Made by a program: the position numbers and the translations under genes. A model generated the notes under the pieces. It did no database searches. It worked only from the letters and a program-made list of their open reading frames with translations, and had not been told where the DNA came from. A stretch of 38,553 nt of DNA from Promethearchaeota archaeon (GTDB taxonomy: Archaea > Asgardarchaeota > Lokiarchaeia > Sigyniarchaeales > SOKP01), in the NCBI GenBank assembly GCA_004524535.1, contig SDNY01000022.1, forward strand, positions 1-38,553, given 5' to 3'. This document shows, piece after piece, positions 3,501 through 36,516 of the stretch (position 1 is its first letter; the number at the start of each line of letters is the position of its first letter).

Positions 3501-6500
3501 TACATGGTATCGGCTCTGGAATGGTACTGAGTGGTCAATAAATTATACTATTCCGGGTTTAGGCTCAGAAAGAACCGGACAAATCAATCAAGATGCTTGG
3601 AATGACTGTCCGAATGGTACTGTCGTTATCGAATTCTATGCGAATTATACCTTCGGCAATTTGAGGATGAATTCTACAACGGTTAGGAAGGATATTCTGG
3701 GACCTTTAATAACTATTAATGATCCTGCTCCAAATGAATTATTTTTATTTAAAGCTCCAGATGACACGGATTGTGATGTAATTTTTAGTGATGTAAGGGG
3801 TATTGATGCTCGATGGCACATGCTAATAAATGCCACAGACAGCAATCACTATACGAACAATTATACGTGGAATGATGAAGTTAATCAGACTGCTTGGAAT
3901 CAAATGGGCAATGGAACTGTTATCATCCGTATTTTTGCGAATGATTCATCGGGGTACATTGGAATGGCAGAAGTTACTGTAAGAAAAAATATTGTAGACC
4001 CATTTATTTCTATTACTAAACCCGATTCAAATGATATTTTCGGGAATAATACAATGAATTTCACAATTTCAGTGTCGGGAAAAGACCTAGATACCATTTG
4101 GTATATGCTAATAAACGGAACAAACAGTAATGATTATACCAACAATTTAACATATTCTAAGACCGTCGTTGCAGGAGAAATTGAAGATACAATTCAATAC
4201 AATTTATGGAATCAATTTGAAAATGGGACGGTTATTATTCGATTCTTCTTGAACAGAACAAACGGAGTGATGGCGTTTGATGATGTTTTAGTGAGAAAAG
4301 ATATTTTGGGACCTTTAATAACTATTAATGCTCCCACTCCAAATGAATTATTTTCCTCAACCGCACCAGGCTTGGCAGATTGCGATGTAATTTTTAGGGA
4401 TGGGAGTGGTATTGCTGCTCGATGGTATATGCTCATAAATGGAACGGATAATACGGACTATACTAATAATTACACTTGGAATGACGAGGTGGATCAATTC
4501 GTCTGGGATTATATGGATAATGGATTTGTTATCATCCGAATTTTTGCGAATGATTCGTTAGGTTACATTGGAATGGCAGAAGTAACCGTAAGGAAAGATA
4601 TTCATTTACCAAGTAATGGAGCGCCCTATAGTTGGGCGTGGGTGTCAGGGAAAAAAACCACAGATGAACCTGGCGTATATGGCACGAAGGGAGTTCCTGA
4701 TATGGCGAACTATCCGGGAGCTAGATACGGATCTGTTTCTTGGACGGATACGGACGGAAATTTTTGGTTATTCGGAGGTTCTGGTTTGAATGACCTCTGG
4801 AGATTTAACATCACCTCAAAGGAGTGGGCGTGGATGTCAGGGAATAAAACCAAAAATCAATGGGGCGTATATGGCACGAAGGGGGTTCCCGATACGGCGA
4901 ATTATCCGGGAGCTAGAGTATGGTCTGTTTCTTGGACGGATACGGACGGAAATTTTTGGTTATTCGGAGGTTCTGGTTATGACGAATCAGGTGGTTCTGG
5001 GTCTTTGAATGACCTCTGGAGATTTAACATCACCTCAAAGGAGTGGGCATGGATGTCAGGGAATAAAAATATAAATCAAAATGGCGTATATGGCACGAAG
5101 GGAGTTCCTGATATGGTGAATTATCCGGGAGGTAGATGGAGTTCTGTTTCTTGGACGGATACGGACGGAAATTTATGGTTATTCGGAGGTTCTGGTTATC
5201 CCGAATCAGGTGGTGCTGGGCGAATGAATGACCTCTGGAGATTTACCATCACCTCAAAGGAGTGGGCGTGGATGTCAGGGAGTAAAACCTTAGGTGATTA
5301 TGGCGTATATGGCACGAAGGGAGTTCCTGATATGGCGAATTATCCGGGAGTTAGACGGGGATCTGTTTCTTGGACGGATACGGACGGAAATTTATGGTTA
5401 TTCGGAGGGTATGGTCGTGCCGAATCAGGTGGTGGGCAGCTGAATGACCTCTGGAGATTTACCATCACCTCAAAGGAGTGGGCGTGGATGTCAGGGAATA
5501 AAACCGTAAATCAAGGTGGTGTATATGGCACGAAGGGAGTTCCTGATATGGCGAATTATCCGGGAGCTAGACACTCTTCTGTTTCTTGGACGGATACGGA
5601 CGGAAATTTTTGGTTATTCGGAGGTTCTTATAGGAATGACCTCTGGAGATTTACCATCACCTCAAAGGAGTGGGCGTGGATGTCAGGGAATAAAACCGCA
5701 AGTGAATATGGCGTATATGGCACGAAGGGAGTTCCTGATATGGCGAATTATCCGGGAGGTAGATACGGTTCTGTTTCTTGGACGGATACGGACGGAAATT
5801 TATGGTTATTCGGAGGTTGGGGTTATGCCGAATCAGGTTTTGATGGGCAGCTGAATGACCTCTGGAGATTTAAAAATTCTATTGCTCCACATATCACGAT
5901 TATTGAGCCTAGGTATAATAAATTATTTAATGCGACGGCTCCTTCATACAACTTAACCTTTATTGATGCTCATTTAGATGATACATGGTATCGCCTCTGG
6001 AATGGTACTGAGTGGTCAATAAATTATATTATTCCGGGTTTAGGCTCAGAAAGAACCGGACAAATCGATCAAGATGCCTGGAACGACTGTCCAAATGGTA
6101 CTGTCGTTATCGAATTCTATGCGAATGATACCTTCGGCAATTTGAGGATGATTTCTACAACGGTTAGGAAGGATATTCTGGGGCCTTTAATAATTATCAA
6201 TAGTCCTGCTCCAAATGAATTATTTTCATTTAAAGCTCCAGATGACACGGATTGCGATGTAATTTTTAGTGATGTAAGTGGTATTGATGCTAAATGGCAT
6301 ATGCTAATAAATGCAACAAATAGCAATCACTATACGAAAAATTATACGTGGAATGATGAAGTTAATCAGACTGCTTGGGAACAAATGGGGAACGGGACCG
6401 TCATTATTTGGATTTTCGCCAATGATTCTCTTGGTAATATCGGGATGGCAGAAGTGATCGTACGAAAGGATATTGAATTACCAAGTATCGTTATTAATGA

Positions 6501-8220
6501 TCCTACTTTAAATGATATTTTCGGCGTGAATACTTTCAATTTCACAATTACGGTTTCGGGAAAAAATCTCGATACCATTTGGTATATGCTAATAAATGGT
6601 ACAGACAGTAATGATTATACCAATAATTTAACATATTCTAAGACCGTCGCTTCTGGTTCAATTGAAGATATGATTAATTATAACCTCTGGAATCAATTTG
6701 AAAATGGAACGGTTATTATTCGATTCTTCTTGAATAGAACGAACGGATTGATATCATTTGATGATGTTTTAGTGAGAAAAGATATAATAGCTCCTGATAT
6801 CATGATAATTGAGCCAGGATATAATAAATTATTTAATGCGACAGCTCCTTCCTACAATTTAATCTTTATTGAAGCTCATTTAGATGATATATGGTATCGG
6901 CTCTGGAATGGTACTAATTGGTCAATAAATTATACAATCGGGGGTTCAGGTTCTCAGAGATTGGGGCAGATAAACCAAGATGCATGGGATGACTGCCCGA
7001 ATGGTACCGTCATTATTGAATTCTATGCGAATGATACCTTAGGCAATTTGAGGATGAATTCTACAACTATTAGGAAGGATATTCTGGGGCCTTTAATAAC
7101 TATTAATGAACCCACTCCGAATGAATTTTTTTCCTCAACCGCACCAGGCTTGGCAGATTGTAATGTTCTATTTAGTGATGGGAGTGGTATTGATGCTCGT
7201 TGGTATATGCTCATAAATGGAACGGATAACACAGACTATACTAATAATTACACATGGAATGAAGAGGTGGATCAATTTGTCTGGGATTATATGGATAATG
7301 GTACCGTCATCATCCGTATTTTTGCGAATGATTCATTAGGTTACATTGGAATGGCAGAAATTATTGTAAGGAAAGATATTTTAGGACCGATAATAAATAT
7401 CAATGATCCTACTCCGAATGAATTATTTTCCTCAACCGCACCAGGCTTGGCAGATTGTAATGTTCTATTTAGTGATGGGAGTGGTATTGATGCTCGATGG
7501 TATATGCTCATAAATGGCACGGATACCACGGACTATACTAATAATTACACCTGGAATGGCGAGGTGGATCAATTCGTCTGGGACTATATGGATAATGGTA
7601 CCGTCATCATCGTTATTTTTGCGAATGATTCGTTAGGCAACATTGGAAGGGCAGAAATTATTGTAAGGAAAGATATTGAATCGCAACCAGGTGGGCAAAT
7701 TCCCGGTGATGATGATGACGATGATGATGACGATGATGATGACGATGATGATGGAATAATAATAATAATAATAATAATCTGTTTCGGTTCTGTAAGTGGT
7801 ATTGCTGCTACTTCTTTATATTATAAACAACACAGAAATAAAAATTTATATAATAAGCCACACAGAAATAAAAAAGCTAAATCAATTCTTAAAAGAAAAT
7901 TTCAAGAATCTAACAAAATTTTCCCTTCTACTCCATCTTCTAAAGAAATCTTAATGGAACTAACTAATAAAAACTTATTACGCCAAATATTTGATACAAA
8001 AAAGATCAAAAAAATTAATGCTATATTAGATAATATATTAGATAATATCGATTTAACTGCGGTATCTGACGAGTTTCTAAGAAAATTGGATTCTTTAAAG
8101 GTAGACAATGAAGAAAAAAGAGAATTTCTTAAAGAAATGCTGCTTTTTTCTCCCGAAGAAAGAAATGAAATTCTTGATAAGATCTTAAAAAGAGTTAATT
8201 CTTATTCTGAAGGCGAATAA
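589..8220 (+). CDS. Giant cell-surface glycoprotein: signal peptide, 3 x six-bladed kelch-type beta-propellers, about 10 Ig-like repeats, poly-Asp linker, C-terminal TM helix, about 130-aa cytoplasmic tail
   Basis: Basic plus hydrophobic N-terminus. 18 repeats of about 73 aa with kelch signature (WLFGG...NDLWRF...EW.W) in three blocks of six. About 100-aa beta-rich repeats delimited by (V)RKDI. Many N-x-S/T sequons. PG-D15-G-I8-CFGSVSGIAATSLYY followed by a basic stretch. Confidence 0.9.
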   Translation: MIKKLKTKIVVIFVLFLIGIAASIISTTFSADVAAGSKKAGSLSTPYSNGATYGWMWMSGNKTINQNGIYGEKGVPDMANYPGARTRSVSWRDTDGNFWLFGGYGYPQSGGDGHLNDLWRFTLTSKEWAWMSGNKTINQNGVYGEKGVPDMANYPGGRWRFVSWTDTEGDFWLFGGTGYAESGGEGYLNDLWRFNITSKEWAWMSGNKTLNQYGIYGEKGVPDIANYPGARYTSASWTDTEGNLWLFEGFGYAESGGTGRLNDLWRFNITSKEWAWMSGNKTLNQYGIYGEKGVPDIANYPGARSFSISWTDTDGNFWLFGGYGYTESSGDRWLNDLWRFNITSKEWAWMSGNKTIDEYGVYGTKGNPDMANYPGARGNSVVWTDTDGNLWLFGGYGYAESGGLGWLNDLWRFSITSKEWAWMSGNKTINQNGVYGEKGVPDMVNYPGARSASVSWTDTDGNFWLFGGDGYAESGGTGRLNDLWRFKLGCAEESQPDGATYGWTWMVGDKNIDQYGVYGEKGVPDMANYPGTRERSVSWMDTDGNFWLFGGEGYAESGSYDRLNDLWRFNITSKEWVWMSGNKTTVEHGVYGEKGVPDIANYPGARWSSVSWTDTDGNFWLFGGDGYAESGGNGRLNDLWRFNITSKEWTWMSGNKTTGEHGVYGEKGVPDMANYPGARSFFVSWTDTDGNFWLFGALGYDESGGYGHLNDLWRFNITSKEWAWMSGNKTINQNGIYGEKGVPDRVNYPGGRERSVSWTDTDGNFWLFGGIGYNESGDYGRLNDLWRFNITSKEWAWMSGNKTINQNGVYGEKGVPDIENYPGGRVDSASWTDTYGNLWLFGGYGYAELGGNWWLNDLWRFNITSKEWAWMSGNKTTGEHGVYGEKGVPDMANYPGARSASAFWTDTDGSLWLFGGFGYAESGGVGRLNDLWRFKDSIAPYIMIIEPRYNKLFNATAPSYNLTFIDAHLDDTWYRLWNGTEWSINYTIPGLGSERTGQINQDAWNDCPNGTVVIEFYANYTFGNLRMNSTTVRKDILGPLITINDPAPNELFLFKAPDDTDCDVIFSDVRGIDARWHMLINATDSNHYTNNYTWNDEVNQTAWNQMGNGTVIIRIFANDSSGYIGMAEVTVRKNIVDPFISITKPDSNDIFGNNTMNFTISVSGKDLDTIWYMLINGTNSNDYTNNLTYSKTVVAGEIEDTIQYNLWNQFENGTVIIRFFLNRTNGVMAFDDVLVRKDILGPLITINAPTPNELFSSTAPGLADCDVIFRDGSGIAARWYMLINGTDNTDYTNNYTWNDEVDQFVWDYMDNGFVIIRIFANDSLGYIGMAEVTVRKDIHLPSNGAPYSWAWVSGKKTTDEPGVYGTKGVPDMANYPGARYGSVSWTDTDGNFWLFGGSGLNDLWRFNITSKEWAWMSGNKTKNQWGVYGTKGVPDTANYPGARVWSVSWTDTDGNFWLFGGSGYDESGGSGSLNDLWRFNITSKEWAWMSGNKNINQNGVYGTKGVPDMVNYPGGRWSSVSWTDTDGNLWLFGGSGYPESGGAGRMNDLWRFTITSKEWAWMSGSKTLGDYGVYGTKGVPDMANYPGVRRGSVSWTDTDGNLWLFGGYGRAESGGGQLNDLWRFTITSKEWAWMSGNKTVNQGGVYGTKGVPDMANYPGARHSSVSWTDTDGNFWLFGGSYRNDLWRFTITSKEWAWMSGNKTASEYGVYGTKGVPDMANYPGGRYGSVSWTDTDGNLWLFGGWGYAESGFDGQLNDLWRFKNSIAPHITIIEPRYNKLFNATAPSYNLTFIDAHLDDTWYRLWNGTEWSINYIIPGLGSERTGQIDQDAWNDCPNGTVVIEFYANDTFGNLRMISTTVRKDILGPLIIINSPAPNELFSFKAPDDTDCDVIFSDVSGIDAKWHMLINATNSNHYTKNYTWNDEVNQTAWEQMGNGTVIIWIFANDSLGNIGMAEVIVRKDIELPSIVINDPTLNDIFGVNTFNFTITVSGKNLDTIWYMLINGTDSNDYTNNLTYSKTVASGSIEDMINYNLWNQFENGTVIIRFFLNRTNGLISFDDVLVRKDIIAPDIMIIEPGYNKLFNATAPSYNLIFIEAHLDDIWYRLWNGTNWSINYTIGGSGSQRLGQINQDAWDDCPNGTVIIEFYANDTLGNLRMNSTTIRKDILGPLITINEPTPNEFFSSTAPGLADCNVLFSDGSGIDARWYMLINGTDNTDYTNNYTWNEEVDQFVWDYMDNGTVIIRIFANDSLGYIGMAEIIVRKDILGPIININDPTPNELFSSTAPGLADCNVLFSDGSGIDARWYMLINGTDTTDYTNNYTWNGEVDQFVWDYMDNGTVIIVIFANDSLGNIGRAEIIVRKDIESQPGGQIPGDDDDDDDDDDDDDDDGIIIIIIIICFGSVSGIAATSLYYKQHRNKNLYNKPHRNKKAKSILKRKFQESNKIFPSTPSSKEILMELTNKNLLRQIFDTKKIKKINAILDNILDNIDLTAVSDEFLRKLDSLKVDNEEKREFLKEMLLFSPEERNEILDKILKRVNSYSEGE
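736..3390 (+). repeat. Intragenic 219-bp tandem repeats (12 kelch units, two propellers)
   Basis: Near-identical DNA units; gaatgacctctggag recurs at a 219-bp period (e.g. about 933 and 1152). Confidence 0.95.
4615..5872 (+). repeat. Third block of 6 kelch repeat units (two units with shortened loops)
   Basis: Same unit as above but with GTKG instead of GEKG. The GGSGLND and GGSYRND units lack the GY.ESG loop. Confidence 0.92.
7708..7779 (+). repeat. In-frame trinucleotide microsatellites (GAY)15-GGA-(ATA)7ATC encoding poly-Asp and the poly-Ile TM start
   Basis: Read directly from the sequence. Confidence 0.95.
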
Positions 8221-14814: not shown

Positions 14815-15693
14815 TTACAATGAATTAATAGCGTTTCTTAATATTGCTAAAATTTTTTCACGATAATTTGGATTGATAGCAATCATTCCATGAACTTTTA
14901 TGGGGGGAATTTTATCAGATAAATTTGCAAGAATTTTTTCACAAAATTCAGGAGTAAGCCTATTAGGTAAATCTTGTTTGTTTGCTATTCCTATAATTAA
15001 ATAACCTTTGTAATATTTTTCCAACACTTCTTTAATAATTTCTTTAGAAGAATTCAAATTTTCATAAGTAGAATCTAATACTAAAAGTGCGATTTGTGTA
15101 TTGTCTAATAAGCTCCCCCATAAAGTCCGGAACTGTGCTTGTCCCGCGAAATCCCAAAAAGTCACTGGCAAAAAACTGAGCTCTTTATCCTCATAATTCG
15201 TTATATTTGCAGTAATCGTTGGAACATACTCAAGATTAATATCTTTTCCGCATATAAGATGAAGTAAACTAGTTTTTCCTACTCCACCGAATCCAATTAT
15301 ACTAACTTTTATTGCGCCTAAAACGATAGTATCTAATTCCTTTTCAAAATCGTAAAAAATAGCGCGGTTTCCATCCCATTTACCTTCCTCAAAGAGAGTG
15401 CCATAATTTTTAATAAATTGAGCTCTAATTTTATTAATCTTTGAATAAACCTGAGCATCGTCATCTTCTAAATCCGCACATACAACTATTATAAAGGAAT
15501 TAACTACTGTATAATGATATTTAAAATCTTCTGTAGAGGTACTTTTAATGTCAGAACGACTAATTTCTTTCATGAATCCTGAAAAAGCACTTAAAAACCC
15601 TGCCAATAAATCTCTATCAATTTCGGAATCTCCATAATTCCTAAATAGCAATGATTTGCCATCCTTGGTCATGATATTAATATATTGGATCAT
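14815..15693 (-). CDS. Longin-like domain fused to an Arf/Rab-like small GTPase
   Basis: N-terminal about 125 aa has a longin-like pattern (GKSLLFRNYG...DLLAGFLSAFSGF); G1 GFGGVGKT, G2 PTI, G3 WDFAGQ, G4 NKQD. Confidence 0.85.
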   Translation of the reverse strand: MIQYINIMTKDGKSLLFRNYGDSEIDRDLLAGFLSAFSGFMKEISRSDIKSTSTEDFKYHYTVVNSFIIVVCADLEDDDAQVYSKINKIRAQFIKNYGTLFEEGKWDGNRAIFYDFEKELDTIVLGAIKVSIIGFGGVGKTSLLHLICGKDINLEYVPTITANITNYEDKELSFLPVTFWDFAGQAQFRTLWGSLLDNTQIALLVLDSTYENLNSSKEIIKEVLEKYYKGYLIIGIANKQDLPNRLTPEFCEKILANLSDKIPPIKVHGMIAINPNYREKILAILRNAINSL

Positions 15694-16498: not shown

Positions 16499-17068
16499 TC
16501 AATGTTTTGTTTTTGAAAGAAATACTTTCTTTGCAATCGTTTCAAAGATTTTTTTTACATTAATACCTGTTTTTGCGGAAGTCTCAAAATACTCAGCATT
16601 TAATTCTTCACTTAAATGATCTGCGTGAGGTTGGACTATTTTTCTATCATCTTTCAAATCAACCTTATTACCGATTAAAACCCGAGGGATTGAACTAAGC
16701 CCATGTTTTATGCATGTATTCCACCAATTTTTTACATTGGAAAAACTAGAACTGCGGGTAATGTCAAAAACTAGAATTATACCATCAGCTCCATTGAAAT
16801 AGGGTTTATGTAGCATGTAGAACTGTGGTTGTCCCGCGATATCCCACATCATTAAGGTAGCAACTATATCCTCGTTGTTAATAGTGGTTTCTAACCGCTC
16901 TTTTACAATATTTACACCTACCGTTGGAAGGTACTGCTCTGGGAAGAGATTCGTTGAGTATTTGCTTAACAGACTCGTTTTACCAACAGAGGGGTCACCA
17001 ATTACGATTATCTTATAAATTGTCTCAGTTTGACCTTGAAACACAATTTTATCGTTATTTTCACTCAT
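16499..17068 (-). CDS. Rab-like small GTPase
   Basis: GDPSVGKT, PTVG, WDIAGQ, GNKVD and ETSAK motifs; no C-terminal prenylation Cys. Confidence 0.95.
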   Translation of the reverse strand: MSENNDKIVFQGQTETIYKIIVIGDPSVGKTSLLSKYSTNLFPEQYLPTVGVNIVKERLETTINNEDIVATLMMWDIAGQPQFYMLHKPYFNGADGIILVFDITRSSSFSNVKNWWNTCIKHGLSSIPRVLIGNKVDLKDDRKIVQPHADHLSEELNAEYFETSAKTGINVKKIFETIAKKVFLSKTKH

Positions 17069-17186: not shown

Positions 17187-17744
17187 TTAAATTAATTTCT
17201 GCAAAGCAATTTTCTTTTCAATATGAAATTTTGATGATTTATTCTTTTCTCGTGAAATAAAAAAAATGGAGTTTAGAATAAAGGTTAATTCTTCCCACTG
17301 ATTTTGTAGCTTTTCTAATATAGATCTTAATTCTTTTTTTCCCCTAATCTGCCCGAGGCTTAAATGGGGAGTAAAACCATTTTTATGTTTATTTGCATCA
17401 TTGCAATCAGGTACGATTTTTAACAATTTTTCTTGAAGTTCTATTATTAAATTAGCGGGTTCTGGATTTAACCATATTGTGTATCTTTGATTTCCGTGAT
17501 GAAAGTAATTAAATATTTTGAGCGATATCTCAAATGAATTAATTTGTTGACAAGTTTTATGAAAATCTTTTTCAAGGTTATTGAACTCATTAATAGGTCT
17601 AAAAGGATAAAAAAGATTGACATGAGGCATCCATCGATTAATTTTTCGGTCATGGATCTTCCGAATTTCTTGGATCGGTGTCCATACATTTTCAGGAGGG
17701 ATTATTACAACTGCAGATGTATAAACTTTGCTCATAAAACTCAT
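17187..17744 (-). CDS. 2H phosphoesterase / 2'-5' RNA ligase family protein
   Basis: Two His motifs, PHVNL (atypical, N in place of T/S) and FTPHLSLG. Confidence 0.85.
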   Translation of the reverse strand: MSFMSKVYTSAVVIIPPENVWTPIQEIRKIHDRKINRWMPHVNLFYPFRPINEFNNLEKDFHKTCQQINSFEISLKIFNYFHHGNQRYTIWLNPEPANLIIELQEKLLKIVPDCNDANKHKNGFTPHLSLGQIRGKKELRSILEKLQNQWEELTFILNSIFFISREKNKSSKFHIEKKIALQKLI

Positions 17745-26257: not shown

Positions 26258-27049
26258 TTGAAAATGAATGACCAAAAAATAATTAAAAAATTACGGGAAC
26301 GCTCGTTTCGTGGTGTAATTTTTGATTTTGATGGAACACTGTTGGATGTTATGGAACCGCTTAAAAGATCAATTGAAGAAGTTTACACTGAAAAGAACAT
26401 CCAAGCAGACATGGAACTTACAATACAAGAAATTGGAACTACATTGGAATCAATCCAGGGATATCCTATACCTAAAATACTACTCCAATCATATGAAATT
26501 TTCAAGGCCATCTCTAGTTTGAGCCATTTAAGATATCTCAAAAAATTGCGTATTGCAATGAAAATCTTTGGAAAATACCAGGAATATTCAAAAGAAGCAT
26601 CGATATTTCCTGGCTCAAAAGAACTAATTTCTTTTCTTAAAAAAGATTGCGTTCTTTTTATTGTATCTCACAATCAAACAAGAAGTGTTATAGAATCAAT
26701 AGAAAAGGAGGGGCTTGAAAAATATTTTGAAGATTTTTATGGGGCCGATAAACTTCCCGCTCTAAAACCACACCCAGACGCTTTTCTCCCTGTTTTAGAG
26801 AAATATAAAAAGATTAAAGGATCTGAGTGGTTATTATTTGGAGATATGCCCACTGATATTGAAGCTGGTAAAGAAGCTGGATTGTGTACTGTAGGAATAG
26901 CAAGTGGGATTAGTAAAAAAGAAGTCTTAGCTGAGTTCCGGCCAGATTTATTGGTCAATTCAATAACAGAATTATTAGAGCTCCTTGGTATTAAAAATGG
27001 TCATAGTTCAAATTCTAATGTTCAAACATCATTAAAAATTAAATCTTAG
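26258..27049 (+). CDS. HAD-superfamily phosphatase
   Basis: DFDGTLLD, IVSH, KPHPD and GDMPTDIEAGKEAG. Confidence 0.93.
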   Translation: MKMNDQKIIKKLRERSFRGVIFDFDGTLLDVMEPLKRSIEEVYTEKNIQADMELTIQEIGTTLESIQGYPIPKILLQSYEIFKAISSLSHLRYLKKLRIAMKIFGKYQEYSKEASIFPGSKELISFLKKDCVLFIVSHNQTRSVIESIEKEGLEKYFEDFYGADKLPALKPHPDAFLPVLEKYKKIKGSEWLLFGDMPTDIEAGKEAGLCTVGIASGISKKEVLAEFRPDLLVNSITELLELLGIKNGHSSNSNVQTSLKIKS

Positions 27050-27062
27050 GAGGTTAAAATAA

Positions 27063-28715
27063 ATGGAAATTCCTAAAACTGATTTAAAAGAAGCACAAAA
27101 ACAAATAAAAAAAGAAAAAGTAAATTTGGAAATTGAAGAGAAAGATCAAGATTTATATGAGAAACCTCATGAAAAATTGCTATATAAAATATTAAAACAT
27201 AACCCTATCGATTATATAAATAATATATTACGTTCTATCTGCGATAAGTTCACAATACAAGATGAAGTTGACGAATTCCAATGGTGGCTTGCTTATGCTT
27301 TTTGGTGTAAATCATCGATGCGTCTCTTCTGGAACTATCGCACAGAAGGTCCCGTGGCTCCCGAGCATGGTGGTGCGGTAATAGTATCAAATCATAATTC
27401 TCATTTAGATCCATTCTTCGTTGGTGGATCAGTCAATAGACCAATTAGATGGATGTCTAAAAAAGAAAATTTTAAAACGCCTATAGTAACTACTCTTTTC
27501 AAAAATTTAGGTGCTTTCGAGCTTGATCGTGATAATCCAGATGAGGGGATGGATAAGGCGAGGGAATTACTTAAAGATGGAGAGTATGTAGGTATATTCC
27601 CTGAAGGAACTCGAGCTGAGAACGGAGAGATGGGAGAATTTCGTACTGGAGCAGTTAGACTTGCAATTGAAACGGGTGTACCAATATTACCATGCGTAGT
27701 TTTAGGATCTCGCGATGCACTTCCAAAAGGCAAGTTAGTGATGAGACCAACTAAAGTAACTTGTCGGCGCGGAGAACCAATTTATTATGAGGATTATTAT
27801 GGAAAGGAAATATCTTATCCCGAAATCAAAAGACTAACTGACGAATTACGAGAGGTTATAATCGACTTATATGAAGGCAATAATGAGGAATCAAAAGAAT
27901 TATCGATTGGATATCCTAAAGATATGGAAGATAAACCCAAATCAAGTGGATTTAAAGGAATCCTTAAAAATATACAACATCATATTTTATGGAGTGTCGA
28001 TGATTTTTGGTATGCACTTCTTAAAAGTCTAGATATGATCGGAGCACGAGACGCATTTACAAAACCAATATATGGCTTGACAGGCGTGTTATTAACTGCT
28101 TATACTGATTTAATTAATCCAATTAAAGTCATAGATTTTGATAAACATATCCCTGAAGAAGGTGGAGCGCTTATTGCATGTGGTCATAGCTCAGAGTGGG
28201 ATGTATTAATGCTTCCTTTAGCCATATGGCAAAATGGAAGTCGACAATTATATCAAATGGCAAAAGAATCTTTATTCAAAATACCAATCGTAAACGCTTG
28301 GGTAAGAACACATCACGCATTTCCATTAAGAAGAGGGGACCATGATATAAGCTCATTCAATACTGGCAAAGATCGATTAGAAGAGGGTCAGCTTGTTGTT
28401 GTTTATCCTGAGGGAACAACCAATCTAGGAGGGGGAGAACTATTAGAAGGTCATACAGGAGCAATTCGCTTGGCGATCGAAGCAAAAGTACCTATTATCC
28501 CCGTTGGAGTAACTGGTACCGAAAATATATATCCAAAACATGCAAAAATGCTCAATTTTGGAAAGGGATGTATATTTAAGGCTGGAAAGCCTTTTATGGA
28601 GCATTCACAATATTTCGATAAACCAATGCCAAAATATGACGAGCTTAGAAGATTAACTAATATCTTGATGGAGAGAATTAAGGATCTAATGTTTTATAAT
28701 AACCCTAATGTTTAA
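27063..28715 (+). CDS. Tandem two-domain PlsC-like glycerolipid acyltransferase
   Basis: Domain 1 NHNSHLD...FPEGTR; domain 2 GHSSEWD...YPEGTT; both keep HX4D. Confidence 0.93.
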   Translation: MEIPKTDLKEAQKQIKKEKVNLEIEEKDQDLYEKPHEKLLYKILKHNPIDYINNILRSICDKFTIQDEVDEFQWWLAYAFWCKSSMRLFWNYRTEGPVAPEHGGAVIVSNHNSHLDPFFVGGSVNRPIRWMSKKENFKTPIVTTLFKNLGAFELDRDNPDEGMDKARELLKDGEYVGIFPEGTRAENGEMGEFRTGAVRLAIETGVPILPCVVLGSRDALPKGKLVMRPTKVTCRRGEPIYYEDYYGKEISYPEIKRLTDELREVIIDLYEGNNEESKELSIGYPKDMEDKPKSSGFKGILKNIQHHILWSVDDFWYALLKSLDMIGARDAFTKPIYGLTGVLLTAYTDLINPIKVIDFDKHIPEEGGALIACGHSSEWDVLMLPLAIWQNGSRQLYQMAKESLFKIPIVNAWVRTHHAFPLRRGDHDISSFNTGKDRLEEGQLVVVYPEGTTNLGGGELLEGHTGAIRLAIEAKVPIIPVGVTGTENIYPKHAKMLNFGKGCIFKAGKPFMEHSQYFDKPMPKYDELRRLTNILMERIKDLMFYNNPNV

Positions 28716-28717
28716 AA

Positions 28718-29743
28718 ATGAGAGTAGGTATCCCCCGAGCACTTCACTATTACAAATTCTTCCCTTTTTGGAAAAAATTATTTGATGAATTGAATGTCGA
28801 AATAATCCTTAGTTCACCAACTAATAAAAAAATAGTAGAAGTTGGAGTAATGCATGGATTTGGAGAATTATGTCTCCCTGTGAAAGTTTATTACGGCCAC
28901 GCTCTCCAATTAATAAATGAACATCCTGAGTTAGACTTTCTATTTGTTCCGAGATATGTTTCTGAGTTAAAGGAATCCTTCTGGTGTCCAAAATGGATAT
29001 CTCTTCCGGATGTTATTAAAATTCTGCCAAACTGCCCAAAATTATTAAATTTTGAAGTAAATGTGAAAGAATTTCCGATTGCCACAGCAGTAATAGAACT
29101 TGGTAAGCAATTAGGGAAAAGTCAGTCTGCTTCATTAGGGGCATATAAAAAAGCCCAAAAATATTATGATGAGTATTTAGAATTTTTAAGGAAAGGAGTT
29201 TCTGTCATTCATGCGTTAAGGCTAGTGTTAAGAGACGCCCCTTTCAAAGTGCCAAAAAGAAAAAGTAAGGGTTCTATTAAATTCCTATTATTAGGGCATG
29301 CTTATAATCTCTTTGATACTTATATAAATTTAGATTTCGCAAAAAAATTGAATGATCAAGATGTTGAGGTTATCACGATTGAAAATATGCCCGAGCACAT
29401 TTTTAAAGACCCCGTAATTGTCAATAAGAAGCTTCTAAATTATTGGCGTCATGAAGAAGAAATAATGCAGGCTATTAGATATTTTTTAACTAAAGGGCGT
29501 AATGAAATCGATGGAGTAATCTTTCTCATAAGCTTCGCTTGTGGTCCGGATAGCCTTATATCAGAATTAATAATGCACGACATGAAAGCTGTAGGAATTC
29601 CTTATCTCGCAATAATAATCGATGAGCATTCTAGTGATTCTGGACTTTTGACACGCGTAGAATCCTTTACCGATATGATTAAAAGGAAAATACAAAAACA
29701 AGAATTAAAAATAAAACAGGAACCAAAATTAAAAATAACTTAA
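28718..29743 (+). CDS. DUF2229 / acyl-CoA dehydratase-activase-associated subunit (PlsA/PlsR-like module)
   Basis: MRVGIPRAL, CLPVKVYYGH, CPKW, LLGHAYN, SFACGPDS and IDEHS...GLLTRVESF. Confidence 0.85.
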   Translation: MRVGIPRALHYYKFFPFWKKLFDELNVEIILSSPTNKKIVEVGVMHGFGELCLPVKVYYGHALQLINEHPELDFLFVPRYVSELKESFWCPKWISLPDVIKILPNCPKLLNFEVNVKEFPIATAVIELGKQLGKSQSASLGAYKKAQKYYDEYLEFLRKGVSVIHALRLVLRDAPFKVPKRKSKGSIKFLLLGHAYNLFDTYINLDFAKKLNDQDVEVITIENMPEHIFKDPVIVNKKLLNYWRHEEEIMQAIRYFLTKGRNEIDGVIFLISFACGPDSLISELIMHDMKAVGIPYLAIIIDEHSSDSGLLTRVESFTDMIKRKIQKQELKIKQEPKLKIT

Positions 29744-29947
29744 GATAATATCAGAAAAATCAATTTCTATAAGCAAAATTTTTTAAATCTTTTATTTTTA
29801 ACATTTCTTTAATTTTCTCATTGGAAGGCATATTAATATCTAAGAAATAGGCTTCGTAAATATTTTAAAATCTGATATGTCTAAATCATGTAAAAGAAGC
29901 GTCCAAAGATAGGAGTTATCTTTGGCATTAAAAAAAAAACTAAGAGC

Positions 29948-30127
29948 TTATTTTTTCGTGAGATCTATTATCTCATTCTTTAGATTGGAATAAAAATCCG
30001 CTAATTTACCATCATAATCAACATTTTCTAAATCTTTCAATAATACTTCTACAGCTTCTTTTGATTTTAAAACGAGGTCGTCATTAGTAGAAACGATATA
30101 GAAATCTTTTGGTTCTAGAACGAAAAG
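29948..30127 (-). pseudogene. 3' remnant of an unidentified gene
   Basis: 59 sense codons with protein-like composition (FVLEPKDFYIVSTNDDLVL...IIDLTKK*) and no start codon. Confidence 0.45.
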
Positions 30128-30282
30128 TCAGAGTAAATATTTAAATTGAAATATTTCCTTTCTCTCTATTATATTAATGAGTTTAACTTTATGTTTGAAG
30201 TAAATTCAGATCAAAAATATTGTATAAAGATTTAATCTACTTCTTATAAAAAAATAAATATCCAAATTACTTTTAATTATAT

Positions 30283-30525
30283 ATGACACATCGAACGATA
30301 GATTTACCTGAACAAATTTATAAAGAATTGATGAAATTAAAACAAAAAAATGAGACCGTTTCCGAGGTAATTTCTCGTTTGATTAAAAAGGAAAAACCTA
30401 TAAAATCAATTAAAAAATTCGCAGGTATTTTTCAAAATTTTTCCGAAGAATGGGAATCTATTGAAAGAGCTCTTTATAAAGATCGTTTAAGGCAAACGAA
30501 CGAAAGAACACTTAATTTTGAATAA
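30283..30525 (+). CDS. vapB: VapB-family antitoxin (DUF217-like)
   Basis: RTIDLPEQIYKELMKLKQKNETVSEVISRLI...KFAG; overlaps the downstream PIN gene. Confidence 0.85.
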   Translation: MTHRTIDLPEQIYKELMKLKQKNETVSEVISRLIKKEKPIKSIKKFAGIFQNFSEEWESIERALYKDRLRQTNERTLNFE

Positions 30526-30946
30526 ATCTATTTTTGATGAGATGCCAATATTAGATAGTGATATTATTATCGCTTATTTCCGAAATGTTCCAAAAGCAGT
30601 TGAGATTATTGATAAGTTTGTTAAGGAACAGAAAATTCTGAAAACTACTATTTTCAATGTGGCAGAATTATATAAAGGAGCATATCTCTCCTCGAAAGTA
30701 AAAGAGAATATTAAAGAAATAGAAGAATTTTTAGAAAATGTAACGATTATTGATTTTACTATAAATGATGCCATAAAATTTGCCAAAATTTCAGCAGAAT
30801 TAAGACAAAAAGGTGAAATGATTGGTGATTTTGATGAATTAATAGCAAGTGTAGCTATTAATAATAATGAAACTATTTTCACGAGAAATATCAATCATTA
30901 TGAAAGAATTCCTCAATTATCATTTAAGAATTGGGAAAAAACATAA
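30518..30946 (+). CDS. vapC: VapC PIN-domain ribonuclease toxin
   Basis: LDSDIII, AELYKG, IGDFDELIASVA and TRNINHY. Confidence 0.92.
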   Translation: MNKSIFDEMPILDSDIIIAYFRNVPKAVEIIDKFVKEQKILKTTIFNVAELYKGAYLSSKVKENIKEIEEFLENVTIIDFTINDAIKFAKISAELRQKGEMIGDFDELIASVAINNNETIFTRNINHYERIPQLSFKNWEKT

Positions 30947-31018
30947 ATTAAACAATATAAAAATTAAAAATAACCTCAATCTAACTTCGTTTGTTATACT
31001 ATTCTTCTCTATCTATCT

Positions 31019-31432
31019 TTATTTTCTCTTTTTCCAAGATCTTAGTTGTAGCTTGAATATATCTTCAAATTTTTTATCTGTAGAGTATATAATATTCGTG
31101 TCATGCTTTTTACAGGTCATTGCAATTATTTCATCGTGCAATTCGTGGCTCTCCATATTCTCTAGCATTAATTTAAGGATCTCTAAGTTAAAATCATCTA
31201 TAATGATATTTTCTGATTTTTCCCATCGATCAAGAGCTTCTCTAATCACATTTATTTTCCCTACTTTTCTCATTTTCCAAAATAACTCCGCTATTGCGAT
31301 AGTAGGTATAATTACTGTTATTTTTCCATCTATCACTTTTTTCTTCAGTTCTTGAAGCATTGAAGGGATTTTCTGATAGTCATAATGAAAATAAAATAGG
31401 ACTTGAGCGTCGATTACTACTATCTCTGTCAT
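31019..31432 (-). CDS. vapC: PIN-domain toxin
   Basis: VIDAQV, IAEL, LHDEIIA and STDKKF. Confidence 0.85.
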   Translation of the reverse strand: MTEIVVIDAQVLFYFHYDYQKIPSMLQELKKKVIDGKITVIIPTIAIAELFWKMRKVGKINVIREALDRWEKSENIIIDDFNLEILKLMLENMESHELHDEIIAMTCKKHDTNIIYSTDKKFEDIFKLQLRSWKKRK

Positions 31433-31457
31433 TTTAAATCAACTGGAAATTATATAA

Positions 31458-31733
31458 TCAATTTTCATTAGGAAATAATGATTTTTTCGCTTCATCTAAC
31501 TCCTCCTCACTAAACGGAGATATTCCTTCAAATAAGTTATCTTCAATTTCGAGAGGATGAATCTTTTTTTTGATTAAAATCGTTTTATCATCTTTCAATT
31601 CCATTTCGACTAAATTCTTATCGTCAATAGCTAATTTGTCCCTCCAATCTTTTGGTATGACAATTCTTCCGTTTGATGAAACTTTTTGAGTTATTTTCTC
31701 AGTCATTTTTACCATTATTTTGTTGATTGTCAT
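31458..31733 (-). CDS. AbrB/MazE/SpoVT-family antitoxin
   Basis: KVSSNGRIVIPKDWRDKLAI; the real start may be a downstream ATG (31715 or 31706). Confidence 0.9.
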   Translation of the reverse strand: MTINKIMVKMTEKITQKVSSNGRIVIPKDWRDKLAIDDKNLVEMELKDDKTILIKKKIHPLEIEDNLFEGISPFSEEELDEAKKSLFPNEN

Positions 31734-31753
31734 TATACTATAACAAATGACAA
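31727..31753. promoter_or_regulatory. Palindrome TTGTCATT-N11-AATGACAA, probable TA autorepression operator
   Basis: Perfect 8-bp inverted repeat at the 5' end of the AbrB gene. Confidence 0.5.
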
Positions 31754-32003
31754 CAAATAAATCTTTTCAAATTTAGAATATTTTAAACAAAATATCTTGA
31801 TGAAATTGAATAATTAGAAGATAGTATCTACAATAGTTGCTTAGATCTAAATTAAAAGCATTATGTAATTTATTTTTCTCATACTATTGATAATATTTAT
31901 CTATTGGAGATATTTTTATATAAAACTGATTTATTTAAACAAAATTTTGTTTAAGTAAATTTAGAATTTAAATTTAAATAAGTTTAAAAAGATTTACGAT
32001 AAG

Positions 32004-33194
32004 ATGCTAGCTTCATTTCCAAATATGGGTCTGAGTTGGGTGGCTTTCAAGACATTAGTTGAATGTATGGGGGTAGATGTAGTTTTGCCTGACCCTACTA
32101 ATCGAGAAGCAATAAAAATAGGTGTAAAATATAGTCCCGAATTTGTTTGCTTTCCTTTTAAAGCAACACTCGGAGATCTCAAAAACGCACTTGACAAGGG
32201 AGCAGATACCCTAATAATGGCCATAGATTGCGGACCCTGCCGTTTCGGATTTTATGCAAGCGTTCAGGAGCGGCTTTTAAAAGAAATGGGTTATAAAAAC
32301 TTTAGATTAATTCCTCTTGACCAGGCTGATTTACTATCGTTCCGGTGGCTTAAACTCATATTCAAGATTGGTCCTTCCAATAGATTGGCATTATATTCAA
32401 AAGCTCTAAAAGCTGCCAAGTTTTTCCTGAAAAAAGCCAAATATCTTGAAGATATTCAAACTGCAGAGGGAATTTTTCGGGCTTACGAGCGAAATCAAGG
32501 AGATACTACTAGAGTAGTTAATAAATTAGTAAAACAACTTGACGAAACTAATACAAGTAAAGGATTTCGTGAATTCCGCAACGTTATAAAAGATACATTT
32601 AACAATATGGATATTGATAAGAATCGCAATCCCCTAAGAGTAGGGATTTCAGGAGAGATTCATATCAGTTTAGAACCTTATGTTAATCTTGATATTAGAC
32701 GGAAATTAGGGGAAATGGGGGTTTTAGTTACTCAATCTCTAAGTCTTTACGATTGGATTGTTCATAAATTCCATCTCAATTATCACAGGAAGTGGCTTGA
32801 GCATCTTGCACGTCCTCATATACCTATGGATATCGGGGGAGAAGCTGTATGGGTGATAGGAGAATATATTGAAAAAGCTAAAGCTGGATTTGATGGATTT
32901 GTGCACCAATATCCTTTCACCTGCATGCCTGAGGTTACTGCCCGAACAATTATTACAAATCATTTACAAAAGAAATACGATTTACCTGTAATTTATTTCT
33001 CATTTGACGAACAGACGAGCTCTACAGGGGGATTTCGCACAAGGCTGGAAGCGTTTGTAGACTTAATGCACGCTAGACGAGATAAAAAAATTGAGGATCA
33101 ACAAATTTCAATAGAAGCATATAAAAAAATCGCTTATGATCATTACGGAAACAATTTTTATAATGAATGTGTTCAATTTGTTCAAACAAAATAG
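32004..33194 (+). CDS. 2-hydroxyacyl-CoA dehydratase-like / CoA-activase-associated subunit (PlsR-like module)
   Basis: SFPNMG, SPEFVCFPFKATLG, GPCRFGFY, GISGEI, PFTCMPE and FDEQT...RTRLEAF. Confidence 0.85.
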   Translation: MLASFPNMGLSWVAFKTLVECMGVDVVLPDPTNREAIKIGVKYSPEFVCFPFKATLGDLKNALDKGADTLIMAIDCGPCRFGFYASVQERLLKEMGYKNFRLIPLDQADLLSFRWLKLIFKIGPSNRLALYSKALKAAKFFLKKAKYLEDIQTAEGIFRAYERNQGDTTRVVNKLVKQLDETNTSKGFREFRNVIKDTFNNMDIDKNRNPLRVGISGEIHISLEPYVNLDIRRKLGEMGVLVTQSLSLYDWIVHKFHLNYHRKWLEHLARPHIPMDIGGEAVWVIGEYIEKAKAGFDGFVHQYPFTCMPEVTARTIITNHLQKKYDLPVIYFSFDEQTSSTGGFRTRLEAFVDLMHARRDKKIEDQQISIEAYKKIAYDHYGNNFYNECVQFVQTK

Positions 33195-33201
33195 AGGTTA
33201 A

Positions 33202-34262
33202 ATGAAAATGGTACAAGTTTCAGATAAGGTCGCTCCTAGCGATAATAAGAAAGACGCTTTCCTTGGTATAGATGCTTTCTAAATTATAGAAGCAATACAA
33301 ATGTTGGAAGCGTCAGTTTAAAATTTGTTCTAATAGACACAGATGGGAATGTACTTACAAGCGTATTCTTAAGAAATAAGGGGTCACCTATCGAATCTGT
33401 TAAAGAAGGAATGGCACAATTAAGAAAGCAAGTAGAGGCAAGTGAAGAATTGCAAGGGTTTGAAATACGAGCTTGTGGAACGACGGGTTCCGCTAGATAT
33501 TTAACCAAAGCCGTTGTTGGCGGAGATCTTGCTAAGACGGAGATTATAGCTCACGCTGTAGGTGCCCAATCTGAATATCCTGATGTGAGAACAATACTAG
33601 AGATTGGAGGACAAGACTCGAAGATGATCCTCCTCCGAGATGGGATCATAGTTGATTTTGCGATGAATTCTGTCTGTGCAGCTGGGACGGGCTCTTTCCT
33701 TGATCATCAAGCTTCAAGGCTTGAAATCCCTATTGAAGAGTTTGGAAGTTATGCTGTAAAATCGACAAATCCAGTTTCAATAGCCGGGAGATGTACCGTA
33801 TTCGCTGAATCTGATATGATTCATAAGCAAAATGCGGGATATTCTCGTGAAGACATTATTGCTGGTTTATGCGATTCATTGGTTCGAAATTATTTGAATA
33901 ATTTATCCAAGGGAAAGGATTTAGACTCCCCAATTGTTTTTCAAGGCGGTGTTTCTTTTAACGCAGGGATTGTACAAGCTTTTGAGAGACACCTTGGTGT
34001 TAAAGTGGTCGTCCCTAAGCATAACGTTTTAATGGGGGCAATAGGCATGGCAATTCTAGTGAGAGATCATTACCTTAACCATGAAACTGAAACTGTATTT
34101 AGGGGATTTGAAGTTGCAGAAATAGATTTTGTCACGTCAGCCTTTAACTGCGGTGATTGTCCCAATAATTGCGAAATTGTTCAAGTTAAAATGCCAGATG
34201 AGGAGGATAAGGTGATAGCTCGATGGGGAAGTCGCTGTGGAAAATGGAACGAACTCATATAA
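33202..34262 (+). CDS. Acyl-CoA dehydratase activase (HgdC/BadFG-type ASKHA ATPase, [4Fe-4S]); join(33202..33271,33301..34262), 343 aa
   Basis: Spliced N-terminus ...AFLGIDVGSVSLK; TTGSAR, EIGGQDSK, MNSVCAAGTGSFLD, RCTVFAESD, FQGGV and C-terminal CGDCPNNC...RC. GAGGT lies upstream of ATG 33202/33208. Confidence 0.9.
33272..33300 (+). other. Putative 29-nt bulge-helix-bulge (BHB) intron in a protein-coding gene
   Basis: GUAU/AUAC 4-bp central helix, 3-nt bulges AGA and AAA, intron stem UGCUU(U)CUA/UAGAAGCA, exon stem GACGCUU(U)CC/GGAAGCGUC. Cuts after bulge nucleotide 2 restore GAT GTT GGA. Confidence 0.85.
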
Positions 34263-35319: not shown

Positions 35320-36516
35320 TTAAAAATCCTCGTCTTCATCAAAATCATCATCATCAAATTCAGCCTCGCTAGGTCTAGGGGCGAGAAAAACCTTCATTTC
35401 AGTATTATCTAACTCCTTAAATTTCATATATGTATTTAAGGGGTGATCGGTCTTCACGCTAAAATCTACTGTATCTCTTTTAGATAATATCTCGGACATT
35501 TTGCCTATCTGCTTTAAAAAGGTAAAAGAATACGCGCCACAACATTCTTTTTTCTGTAGCATATTCTCCAATATGGTTTTACTGCTCAACGATAACTCCC
35601 CGTCTTTGAGCTCTTCTTTAATAGGACTTAAATCAAAATAAAGGTTCTTAATGTTGTTTTTCTTCCAAATAATGTCCCCTTCTCCCAGTTGTCCTTCCTC
35701 CGAGAAGCTAATTTCATTTGGTCTGACCTTAATCGTTATGATTTCGCTGTATAAATCCATATTCCTTAAGACATACTCTAACTTGGAAGGGGAGATCGAA
35801 AACCCGGACGGGTAAACTATTCCTGAAACCATTTCTATGGGTACTTCTTCCATATCAAGATCTAAGGGTTGTAGGGTTCTGTTGATGGTGGAATTGTATT
35901 CTCTGGATTTAATGGTTATATAGAGGCGATCTTCTGCAAAAGTTAAGGTCGTCTGTGAATTATCGGTGCTATTACATTTGATTAGCTTTTGAAGATCATC
36001 AAGATTGATGCCTAATTTGCCTTCTCTTAAAAATTGATAAGATTTGCCTCTTAGTTCTATGTGAAATAAACAGATTCTTGAAGGATCCATAACAGCTATT
36101 TTGATATAGTCTTTTGTGGCCATGAATTCTATCTCGTCTATAATTGAGCTAAAAATTCTAAAAAAATTGTGCAAGGGATAAGAAGGAAAAGAGATTCTGC
36201 AAAATGCATTCTTATTTATCAGCAACTCCAATCTCCCCTGTAAATCTCTTAAAAACTTTTTCTTTCTCTGGATGATTTCCTTTGGTTTGATAAATGAATA
36301 TTCGGTAAAAATGGCGTCTAATTTAGAATTAATCTCGCTTGAGAATCTTTTCTGGAAGGTGCTGGTCTTCTCTACGAAGATAGAGGAGGATGATTTTTTA
36401 TTATAGGAAAAAAGTAGAGCGTCGAGCTTTTCGCTAAGCTCTTTGTCCTGCTCTCCTTTTTCCGCTAAGTCTGCCCAATAACTATCCTTTTCTGCTTCAA
36501 CCATTTTTCTGATCAT
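35320..36516 (-). CDS. pcn: Divergent PCNA (sliding clamp) with about 105-aa N-terminal extension and an internal insertion
   Basis: SSIIDE, MDPSRICL, GINLDDL.K, YSF.FL, KTDHPL and FLAPR, plus an acidic tail. Confidence 0.85.
   Translation of the reverse strand: MIRKMVEAEKDSYWADLAEKGEQDKELSEKLDALLFSYNKKSSSSIFVEKTSTFQKRFSSEINSKLDAIFTEYSFIKPKEIIQRKKKFLRDLQGRLELLINKNAFCRISFPSYPLHNFFRIFSSIIDEIEFMATKDYIKIAVMDPSRICLFHIELRGKSYQFLREGKLGINLDDLQKLIKCNSTDNSQTTLTFAEDRLYITIKSREYNSTINRTLQPLDLDMEEVPIEMVSGIVYPSGFSISPSKLEYVLRNMDLYSEIITIKVRPNEISFSEEGQLGEGDIIWKKNNIKNLYFDLSPIKEELKDGELSLSSKTILENMLQKKECCGAYSFTFLKQIGKMSEILSKRDTVDFSVKTDHPLNTYMKFKELDNTEMKVFLAPRPSEAEFDDDDFDEDEDF

Follow-up and report, generated by a model that had tools for sequence, protein, structure and literature searches.

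What interrupts an archaeal gene for 29 nucleotides (nt), in the middle of a conserved nucleotide-binding motif, and can the transcript be made whole again? The question is posed by a 38,553-nt contig of a Promethearchaeota (Asgard) archaeon (SDNY01000022.1, assembly GCA_004524535.1), the whole of which is referred to here as the window. Near its end, on the + strand, a gene for an acyl-CoA dehydratase activase breaks off within its 24th codon, and an original prediction made from the letters alone proposed that the break represents an intron of the bulge-helix-bulge (BHB) kind inside an mRNA. Our analysis indicates that positions 33272-33300 probably constitute an intron of the BHB type processed by the endonuclease EndA and the ligase RtcB, carried in the activase pre-mRNA. 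This interpretation is preferred because the boundaries are in register with the motif, a second copy preserves the structure, the intact exons are constrained, and 78/79 informative relatives lack the insert. The action of EndA and RtcB on this transcript, and its splicing in cells, are inferred.

The interrupted activase gene and its relatives

The insert at 33272-33300 reads ATGCTTTCTAAATTATAGAAGCAATACAA. Translation from ATG 33202 yields MKMVQVSDKVAPSDNKKDAFLGIDAF and then meets the in-frame stop TAA at 33280-33282, and the unspliced reading frame gives a peptide of only 26 amino acids. From 33303, a frame of 319 open codons runs from VGSVSLK to KWNELI and a stop. Removing exactly 33272-33300 joins ...KKDAFLGID directly to VGSVSLK..., for a spliced length of 24 + 319 = 343 amino acids from ATG 33202, or 341 from the second Met, the start with which relatives are annotated. 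The original prediction had described a 29-nt insert bringing an in-frame stop and a frameshift between GID and VGS, and a splice product containing GGT ATA GAT GTT GGA AGC within a 343-residue protein; all of its sequence statements proved accurate, and GIDVGS is restored exactly. If the transcript is spliced, the peptide across the junction would be DAFLGIDVGSVSLK.

Exon 2 matches Pfam PF01869 (BcrAD_BadFG, 6e-45) and TIGR00241 (acyl-CoA dehydratase activase, 3e-54), and once the insert is removed the match to the BcrAD_BadFG / acyl-CoA dehydratase activase profile is full-length. The N-terminal GxDxGS motif is likewise complete only after removal. In the intact relative P0003, GIDVGS, which we take to be the phosphate-binding motif of the ATPase fold, aligns to residues 6-11 of MbdQ (9gai_D); this protein additionally matches the HgdC-type activators 4eht and 1hux.

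A protein search returned thousands of relatives of the activase, the best 120 of which were compared. The best, P0003 (97% identical, 340 amino acids), has no break and reads ...KKDAFLGIDVGSVSLK, with an uninterrupted junction stretch of ...KKDAFLGIDVGSVSLKFVLIDTDGN. The exon 1 product (P0001) ends in ...KKDAFLGID and the exon 2 product (P0002) begins with VGSVSLK, with no residue gained or lost between them. A scan of a genome collection supplied 80 further loci, all from Promethearchaeota/Asgard metagenome-assembled genomes (MAGs) that are species representatives; 79 are informative at the junction, the contig end cutting the remaining one (L080). The alignment of homologs for presence and absence that had been recommended with the original prediction gave a clear division: G-I-D-(V/I)-G-S is uninterrupted in 78/79 informative loci, and the sole interrupted locus, L051, carries its insert at the same place as the window.

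L051 lies on contig CAZZIC010000092.1 of an independent Promethearchaeota MAG. As in the window, its 29-nt insert (3970-3998) starts directly behind the G of the Asp codon, and the two inserts are identical at 25/29 positions. The four differences, none of which disturbs the structure, comprise a compensatory change of G3/C22 to A3/U22, the bulged base of the hairpin, and one loop base; in the two-intron comparison 44/46 pair cells are paired, and when four substitutions are placed at random, no core pair of the 14 is lost in 4.1% of trials. Exon 2 of L051 is a 314-codon frame free of stops. Both carriers encode Gly-Ile-Asp as GGT ATA GAT, a choice made by 3/78 intron-less loci, and it is this codon choice that supplies the GUAU strand of the predicted exon-intron helix.

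The nearest relative, L001 (LW60_4 MAG), is about 92% identical in nucleotide sequence over 4.9 kilobases (kb) and lacks the insert. Indels between the two consist of two of 3 nt, both in frame, one intergenic indel of 1 nt, and the 29-nt insert, which is the only frame-breaking indel over those 4.9 kb. Polarized with L002, which is also intron-less, the window branch shows 16 codon changes that are synonymous and 2 that are not, as compared with 17 and 4 on the intron-less L001 branch. The ratio of 16:2, together with the stop-free exon 2 of L051, indicates that purifying selection has acted on the activase in the carrier lineage. A tree built from the nucleotide sequences of 81 activase genes places the window as sister to L001 (SH-like approximate likelihood ratio test, SH-aLRT, 99), with L002 next (99), and L051 in a distant group.

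Six of the best 120 relatives (P0034, P0036, P0037, P0042, P0046, and P0054) are 308-311 amino acids long and share an internal Met start (MD[MIL]DGN) that lies ten codons past the intron site. Such starts are what a gene caller would assign to genes broken within their first 32 codons; these proteins, which fall into at least three sequence groups, may represent further intron-bearing genes.

Predicted fold, chance expectation, and competing explanations

A published rule for such motifs requires that four exon bases pair with the intron bases directly before the 3' bulge, that the bulges, which hold the cut sites, be 3 nt long, and that helices h and h' have at least two pairs, with G-U pairs allowed (preprint 10.64898/2026.10.13.758758, section 4.8); helix h is required for the strict hBHBh' class and is lacking in HBh'. 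The window locus offers a 4-base-pair (bp) exon-intron helix, an h' of at least two pairs, and two 3-nt bulges on opposite strands in the productive register; by rule it classes as hBHBh' (h = 2), and L051 as HBh' (h = 1). The minimum free energy (MFE) fold of 33245-33322 has an energy of -19.6 kcal/mol (z = -3.2; 1/200 shuffles equally good) and reproduces the structure that the original prediction had drawn. Its central helix H, GUAU/AUAC, is Watson-Crick throughout in both the window and L051 (pair probability 0.55-0.76), and the 5' bulge at 33270-72 is a true 3-nt bulge. The strands of h' (33273-81/33287-94) form 6 contiguous pairs, or 8 counting across a bulged U, at probabilities of 0.7-1.0. 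The distal exon stem retains 8/9 pairs in L051, whose fold has the same topology and an 8-bp h' with one bulge.

On the intron interpretation, the transcript would fold so that exon GUAU pairs with intron AUAC; this helix would be flanked by the 8-bp intron hairpin and, at its opposite end, by a weak or loop-like exon part that the 9-bp exon stem closes. EndA would then cleave each 3-nt bulge behind its second base (33271 and 33300); the register of cutting after the second bulge base derives from tRNA 37/38 geometry. An RtcB-type ligase would join the exons, recreating the Asp codon from G and AT and with it GIDVGS, the conserved motif for nucleotide binding. The excised 29-mer would be set free, probably as a circle. 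Splicing of archaeal tRNA, rRNA, and cbf5 transcripts is established (PMC6379350, PMC2738675, PMC7714728). Asgard archaea are described as having an (alpha-beta)2 EndA with an L1 loop and a broad specificity for relaxed motifs (PMC5829648), and cbf5 pre-mRNA introns, the motifs of which are frequently relaxed, have been tied to that EndA type (PMC2738675).

A BHB motif alone proves nothing, because the loose pattern is abundant by chance in AT-rich DNA; the window and the 80 loci together hold 27,965 matches. The motif is meaningful here because homology fixes its boundaries independently. As ATG begins both the insert and exon 2 (a 3-nt direct repeat), four placements of the 29-nt deletion lead to an identical product, and a single one, that of the original prediction, is in BHB register. 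When shuffled introns or random window 29-mers were put at the homology-fixed site (200,000 trials each), the minimal motif was reached by 452 and 322, respectively, and the observed stringency by 6 and 3.

Searches for additional introns were less productive. A motif-only scan of the window and the 80 loci for further BHB inserts, a check of the kind advised by the original prediction, was dropped as uninformative: false positives dominated its "ORF-repair" (open reading frame) filter, which also missed the true intron because exon 1 is short. In a motif-free census, tblastn searches with the four operon proteins recovered the split in the window alone among the window and the 80 loci; L051 escaped, its exon 1 being short and diverged. 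Querying 632,602 bases with a covariance model of the intron core (R1) recovered only the window and L051, with the next match at E = 0.75, and no Rfam family matched in the window.

Several observations weigh against the intron interpretation. The loose pattern is common by chance, with 1,903 matches in the window and a mean of 1,530 in 10 shuffles. On the 3' side, the bulge belongs to a longer unpaired run of 7 nt (33299-33305) in the MFE fold, both G·U pairs of the exon-side helix h next to the cut site are predicted at a probability of 0.01-0.02, and L051 allows just one h pair; in the modeled structure, the 3' cut site would lie in a 7x4-nt internal loop closed by the distal 9-bp stem and not in a clean 3-nt bulge. 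The motif had been called canonical, which holds under the rule-based definition but not thermodynamically, given those two improbable G·U pairs. With the 3' cut site in an internal loop and a single h pair in L051, it is better termed relaxed (HBh'-like). The L051 fold itself does not stand out clearly from its shuffles (z = -1.65; 14/200 as good). The covariation check proposed earlier yielded the one compensatory G-C to A-U pair, but the covariation count was no different from that of shuffles (237/500 match it), a control that is powerless with two sequences. Pfam scans of the 38.5-kb window did not find EndA or RtcB genes, and a tRNA positive control for the register returned 0 tRNA genes in the window and the 60/80 loci scanned. 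Finally, a 2.3-kb insertion that is absent from L001 splits the operon in the window, which can be read as the mark of a decaying locus.

The last of these points leads to the alternative that survives best, though we regard it as unlikely: the activase is a pseudogene bearing a recent small palindromic DNA insertion, retained in the RNA, with a coincidental BHB-like geometry. Such a history would fit the 26-residue unspliced product, the position of the 3' cut site outside any stable bulge, the ATG repeat flanking the insert with its four equivalent deletion placements, and an operon also broken by 2.3 kb containing genes for a PIN toxin and a MazE-like antitoxin. However, it sits poorly with the fact that a distant lineage carries the same insert at the identical base, with differences that preserve structure, and with hosts that are otherwise intact (314-319-codon frames; 16 synonymous and 2 non-synonymous changes on the window branch). 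The motif fit at independently set boundaries arose in 3-6/200,000 random trials, and no further copy of the element occurs in 632 kb, unlike a spreading DNA repeat.

Ribosomes might instead hop the insert with no splicing of the RNA, as in the translational bypassing of phage T4 gene 60, and the stable hairpin, the in-frame stop soon after the break point, and the short gap of about 30 nt are all features in keeping with this idea. We consider it very improbable. No landing codon matches the take-off codon GAU (33270-72), as AAU precedes GUU 33303-05, and the stop lies three codons past the take-off codon and does not adjoin it. Bypassing also leaves unexplained the 4-bp exon-intron helix, the symmetric 3-nt bulges at the boundaries, and the choice of GGT ATA by both carriers. 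An assembly or sequencing artefact, in which the 29 nt would be absent from the real DNA, is an alternative that the original prediction had itself raised, and hairpin-forming inserts can arise as chimeras; it is excluded by the diverged copy at the same site in the independent L051 assembly, and the remaining alignment to L001 is clean, with only in-frame or intergenic indels.

Origin of the insert and its gene neighborhood

The tree requires at least two changes of intron state. A single ancient gain would demand losses in L001, L002, (L003, L004), and (L010, L044) on the window side, and more on the L051 side. At third codon positions, identity between the two host genes is 43% (136/314), the level of other distant pairs, and against this rate an intron identity of 25/29 has a binomial P of ~1e-5. 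Because the introns are far more alike than the synonymous sites of their hosts, these data suggest either mobility or strong sequence constraint. We tentatively raise the possibility that the intron is mobile. In that case two distant Promethearchaeota lineages would have acquired a near-identical 29-mer in the same codon, each on its own, at an exon hairpin that was already in place; the endonuclease/ligase reaction could, for instance, be reversed and the product then copied back into DNA. Alternatively, the intron may be old, with unusually strong sequence constraint and many precise losses. In Asgard tRNA genes, intron positions are reported to be reused and many gains to be recent, with the route of arrival not identified (preprint 10.64898/2026.10.13.758758).

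The exon hairpin was considered as evidence of co-adaptation and rejected, as it is already paired in intron-less loci: all 9/9 pairs of the distal stem can form in 15/78 and 8/9 in 29/78, for 44/78 with at least 8. Its presence in most intron-less relatives reflects the D-A-F...G-S-V codons, which form the stem, such that the site appears pre-adapted.

Two other routes of origin were tried and set aside. There is no sign of a gene-conversion tract; over the first 150 nt of exon 2, 18/50 third positions are identical, and in the exon flanks L051 has 28/33 window-like bases, as compared with 29 and 28 in the intron-less L072 and L077. Duplication of the exon hairpin was suggested by the GCUUUC...GAAGC that the two hairpins share. 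When the intron was aligned locally to its exon flanks, the result was no better than that of shuffles, which matched it in 2,601 and 3,293 of 5,000 cases for the window and in 657 and 1,474 of 5,000 for L051.

Table 1. Positions of the activase gene parts, predicted RNA elements, and upstream genes in the window
Feature	Position	Strand	Remarks
HAD-type phosphatase	26258-27049	+	
550-amino-acid protein with two PlsC-type acyltransferase domains	27063-28715	+	
DUF2229/HGD-D-like dehydratase-family protein	28718-29743	+	
DUF2229/HGD-D-like dehydratase-family subunit, upstream of activase	32004-33194	+	Pfam; adjoins activase in L001 too
Likely ribosome-binding site GAGGT	33194-33198	+	Upstream of ATG 33202; identical in L001; putative function, from sequence
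Activase exon 1, codons 1-23 and first base of codon 24 (Asp)	33202-33271	+	Translation; aligns with N-termini of intact relatives
Alternative exon 1 start codon	ATG 33208	+	
Distal exon stem, 5' strand	33253-33261	+	9 bp with 33306-33314 (MFE); probabilities 0.4-1.0
Exon-side helix h, 5' strand (U, G)	33264-33265	+	Predicted very weak; pairs with 33302-33303 (two G·U)
Central helix H, 5' strand GUAU (exon 1)	33266-33269	+	Pairs with 33295-33298 (MFE); invariant in L051
5' bulge AG^A	33270-33272	+	Predicted cut after 33271; unpaired in MFE fold
Putative 29-nt intron, phase 1	33272-33300	+	Frameshift and in-frame stop TAA 33280-82
Intron hairpin h'	33273-33294	+	8 bp and one bulged U; loop AAUUA 33282-86
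Central helix H, 3' strand AUAC (intron)	33295-33298	+	
3' bulge AA^A	33299-33301	+	Predicted cut after 33300
Activase exon 2, last two Asp-codon bases, then VGS...NELI and stop	33301-34262	+	
Distal exon stem, 3' strand	33306-33314	+	

The activase closes an operon-like run on the + strand of the window (Table 1), consisting of the HAD-type phosphatase, the acyltransferase protein, the two DUF2229/HGD-D-like proteins, and the activase itself. The conserved neighborhood spans 26258-34262 in the window, 10-4945 in L001, and 1422-8136 in L051, near which an acyltransferase also occurs. The 2-hydroxyacyl-CoA dehydratase family, to which the dehydratase-like proteins belong, is said to include PlsA/PlsR, the plasmalogen synthase of bacteria (PMC12838417); a lipid-modifying role of this neighborhood in Asgard archaea is possible. 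The gating of a membrane-lipid pathway that the original prediction had suggested finds no support beyond these neighboring genes, with their acyltransferase domains and dehydratase-family proteins.

The 2.3-kb stretch absent from L001 covers 29702-31999; in L001, 62 nt part the two dehydratase-family genes. It holds ORFs for a PIN-domain (VapC-like) protein at 30518-30946 and a MazE/AbrB-type antitoxin at 31458-31733 (- strand), and looks like an inserted toxin-antitoxin cassette. In L051, a 242-amino-acid ORF without a Pfam match (2849-3577) stands between the dehydratase-family gene and the activase, which adjoin in the window and L001. The activase C-terminus reads ...GKWNELI in the window and P0005 and ...GKWEVF in L001 and most others; similarity between the window and L001 stops at 34247, and the downstream genes differ.

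Elsewhere in the window, Asgard-typical genes (589-8220, 14815-15693, 16499-17068, and 35320-36516) include those for a 2,543-amino-acid Kelch-repeat protein, two Ras/Arf-family small GTPases, one of which weakly matches a longin domain, and a PCNA-like protein that carries a long extension at its N-terminus and ends in an acidic tail. An ORF at 17187-17744 (- strand) belongs to the 2'-5' RNA ligase (2H phosphoesterase) superfamily (Pfam 2e-33), a family that acts on cyclic-phosphate RNA ends.

Relation to known splicing systems and significance

The closest published parallel is the cbf5 pre-mRNA intron of Crenarchaeota (Desulfurococcales and Sulfolobales), which, like the activase insert, is short, lies in the coding frame, and often has a relaxed BHB motif (PMC2738675). 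It is removed by the hetero-oligomeric tRNA splicing endonuclease (PMC2738675), and the same enzyme type is proposed to act here. Both genes show a lineage-specific presence and absence of the intron and are prone to mis-annotation as broken or frameshifted (PMC2738675). The two differ in that cbf5 encodes an RNA-modification enzyme, a pseudouridine synthase, in Crenarchaeota, whereas the activase is a metabolic ATPase in Asgard archaea (Promethearchaeota); the cbf5 intron is clade-wide and the activase intron rare (1/79 informative loci and the window); and cbf5 splicing has been demonstrated experimentally, whereas that of the activase is predicted.

A BHB intron in the 5' untranslated region (UTR) of Haloferax volcanii HVO_1309 has been confirmed in vitro as an mRNA substrate of the splicing endonuclease (PMC7714728). 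That intron lies in an untranslated leader and is independent of frame, whereas that of the activase breaks up codon 24, within a catalytic motif. As of 2020, the authors of that work gave cbf5 as the only other reported case beside the Haloferax 5'-UTR intron (PMC7714728).

Archaeal tRNA introns, in which some Asgard classes are rich, are delimited by the same motif definition (preprint 10.64898/2026.10.13.758758). At 29 nt the activase intron is inside their size range of 11-175 nt, and in tRNA genes, too, the same position is reused across lineages (preprint 10.64898/2026.10.13.758758; PMC2738675). Unlike tRNA introns, it has an mRNA host with no tRNA body, and its exon helix is drawn from coding sequence set by conserved amino acids.

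The splicing of HAC1/XBP1 mRNA in eukaryotes is likewise a non-spliceosomal removal of a short, frame-changing mRNA intron by an endonuclease with RtcB-type ligation. The endonuclease there is IRE1. It is a different enzyme recognizing a different cut-site structure in a regulated stress switch, and the likeness that the original prediction drew would be a functional analogy of form only. The activase intron is no demonstration of regulated splicing or of a link to the spliceosome.

The splicing mechanism is thus a known one, and what would be new is its host, an Asgard metabolic gene. The original prediction knew of no such intron, and a literature search likewise found no BHB intron described in an Asgard protein-coding gene, with the limit that subscription journals or supplements may hold one. 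BHB mRNA splicing is rare for archaeal protein genes, and the case would bring it to the lineage nearest to eukaryotes. Among the "pseudogenes" and N-terminally truncated gene calls of these MAGs, some may carry an intron. The window and L001, 92% identical in nucleotide sequence with and without the intron, form a natural experiment on gain or loss. The arrival of such introns is described as the central open problem (preprint 10.64898/2026.10.13.758758), and the near-identical copy in a distant lineage bears on it. If the intron is indeed mobile, it would be a live case of endonuclease-type introns colonizing protein-coding genes among the archaea most closely related to eukaryotes.

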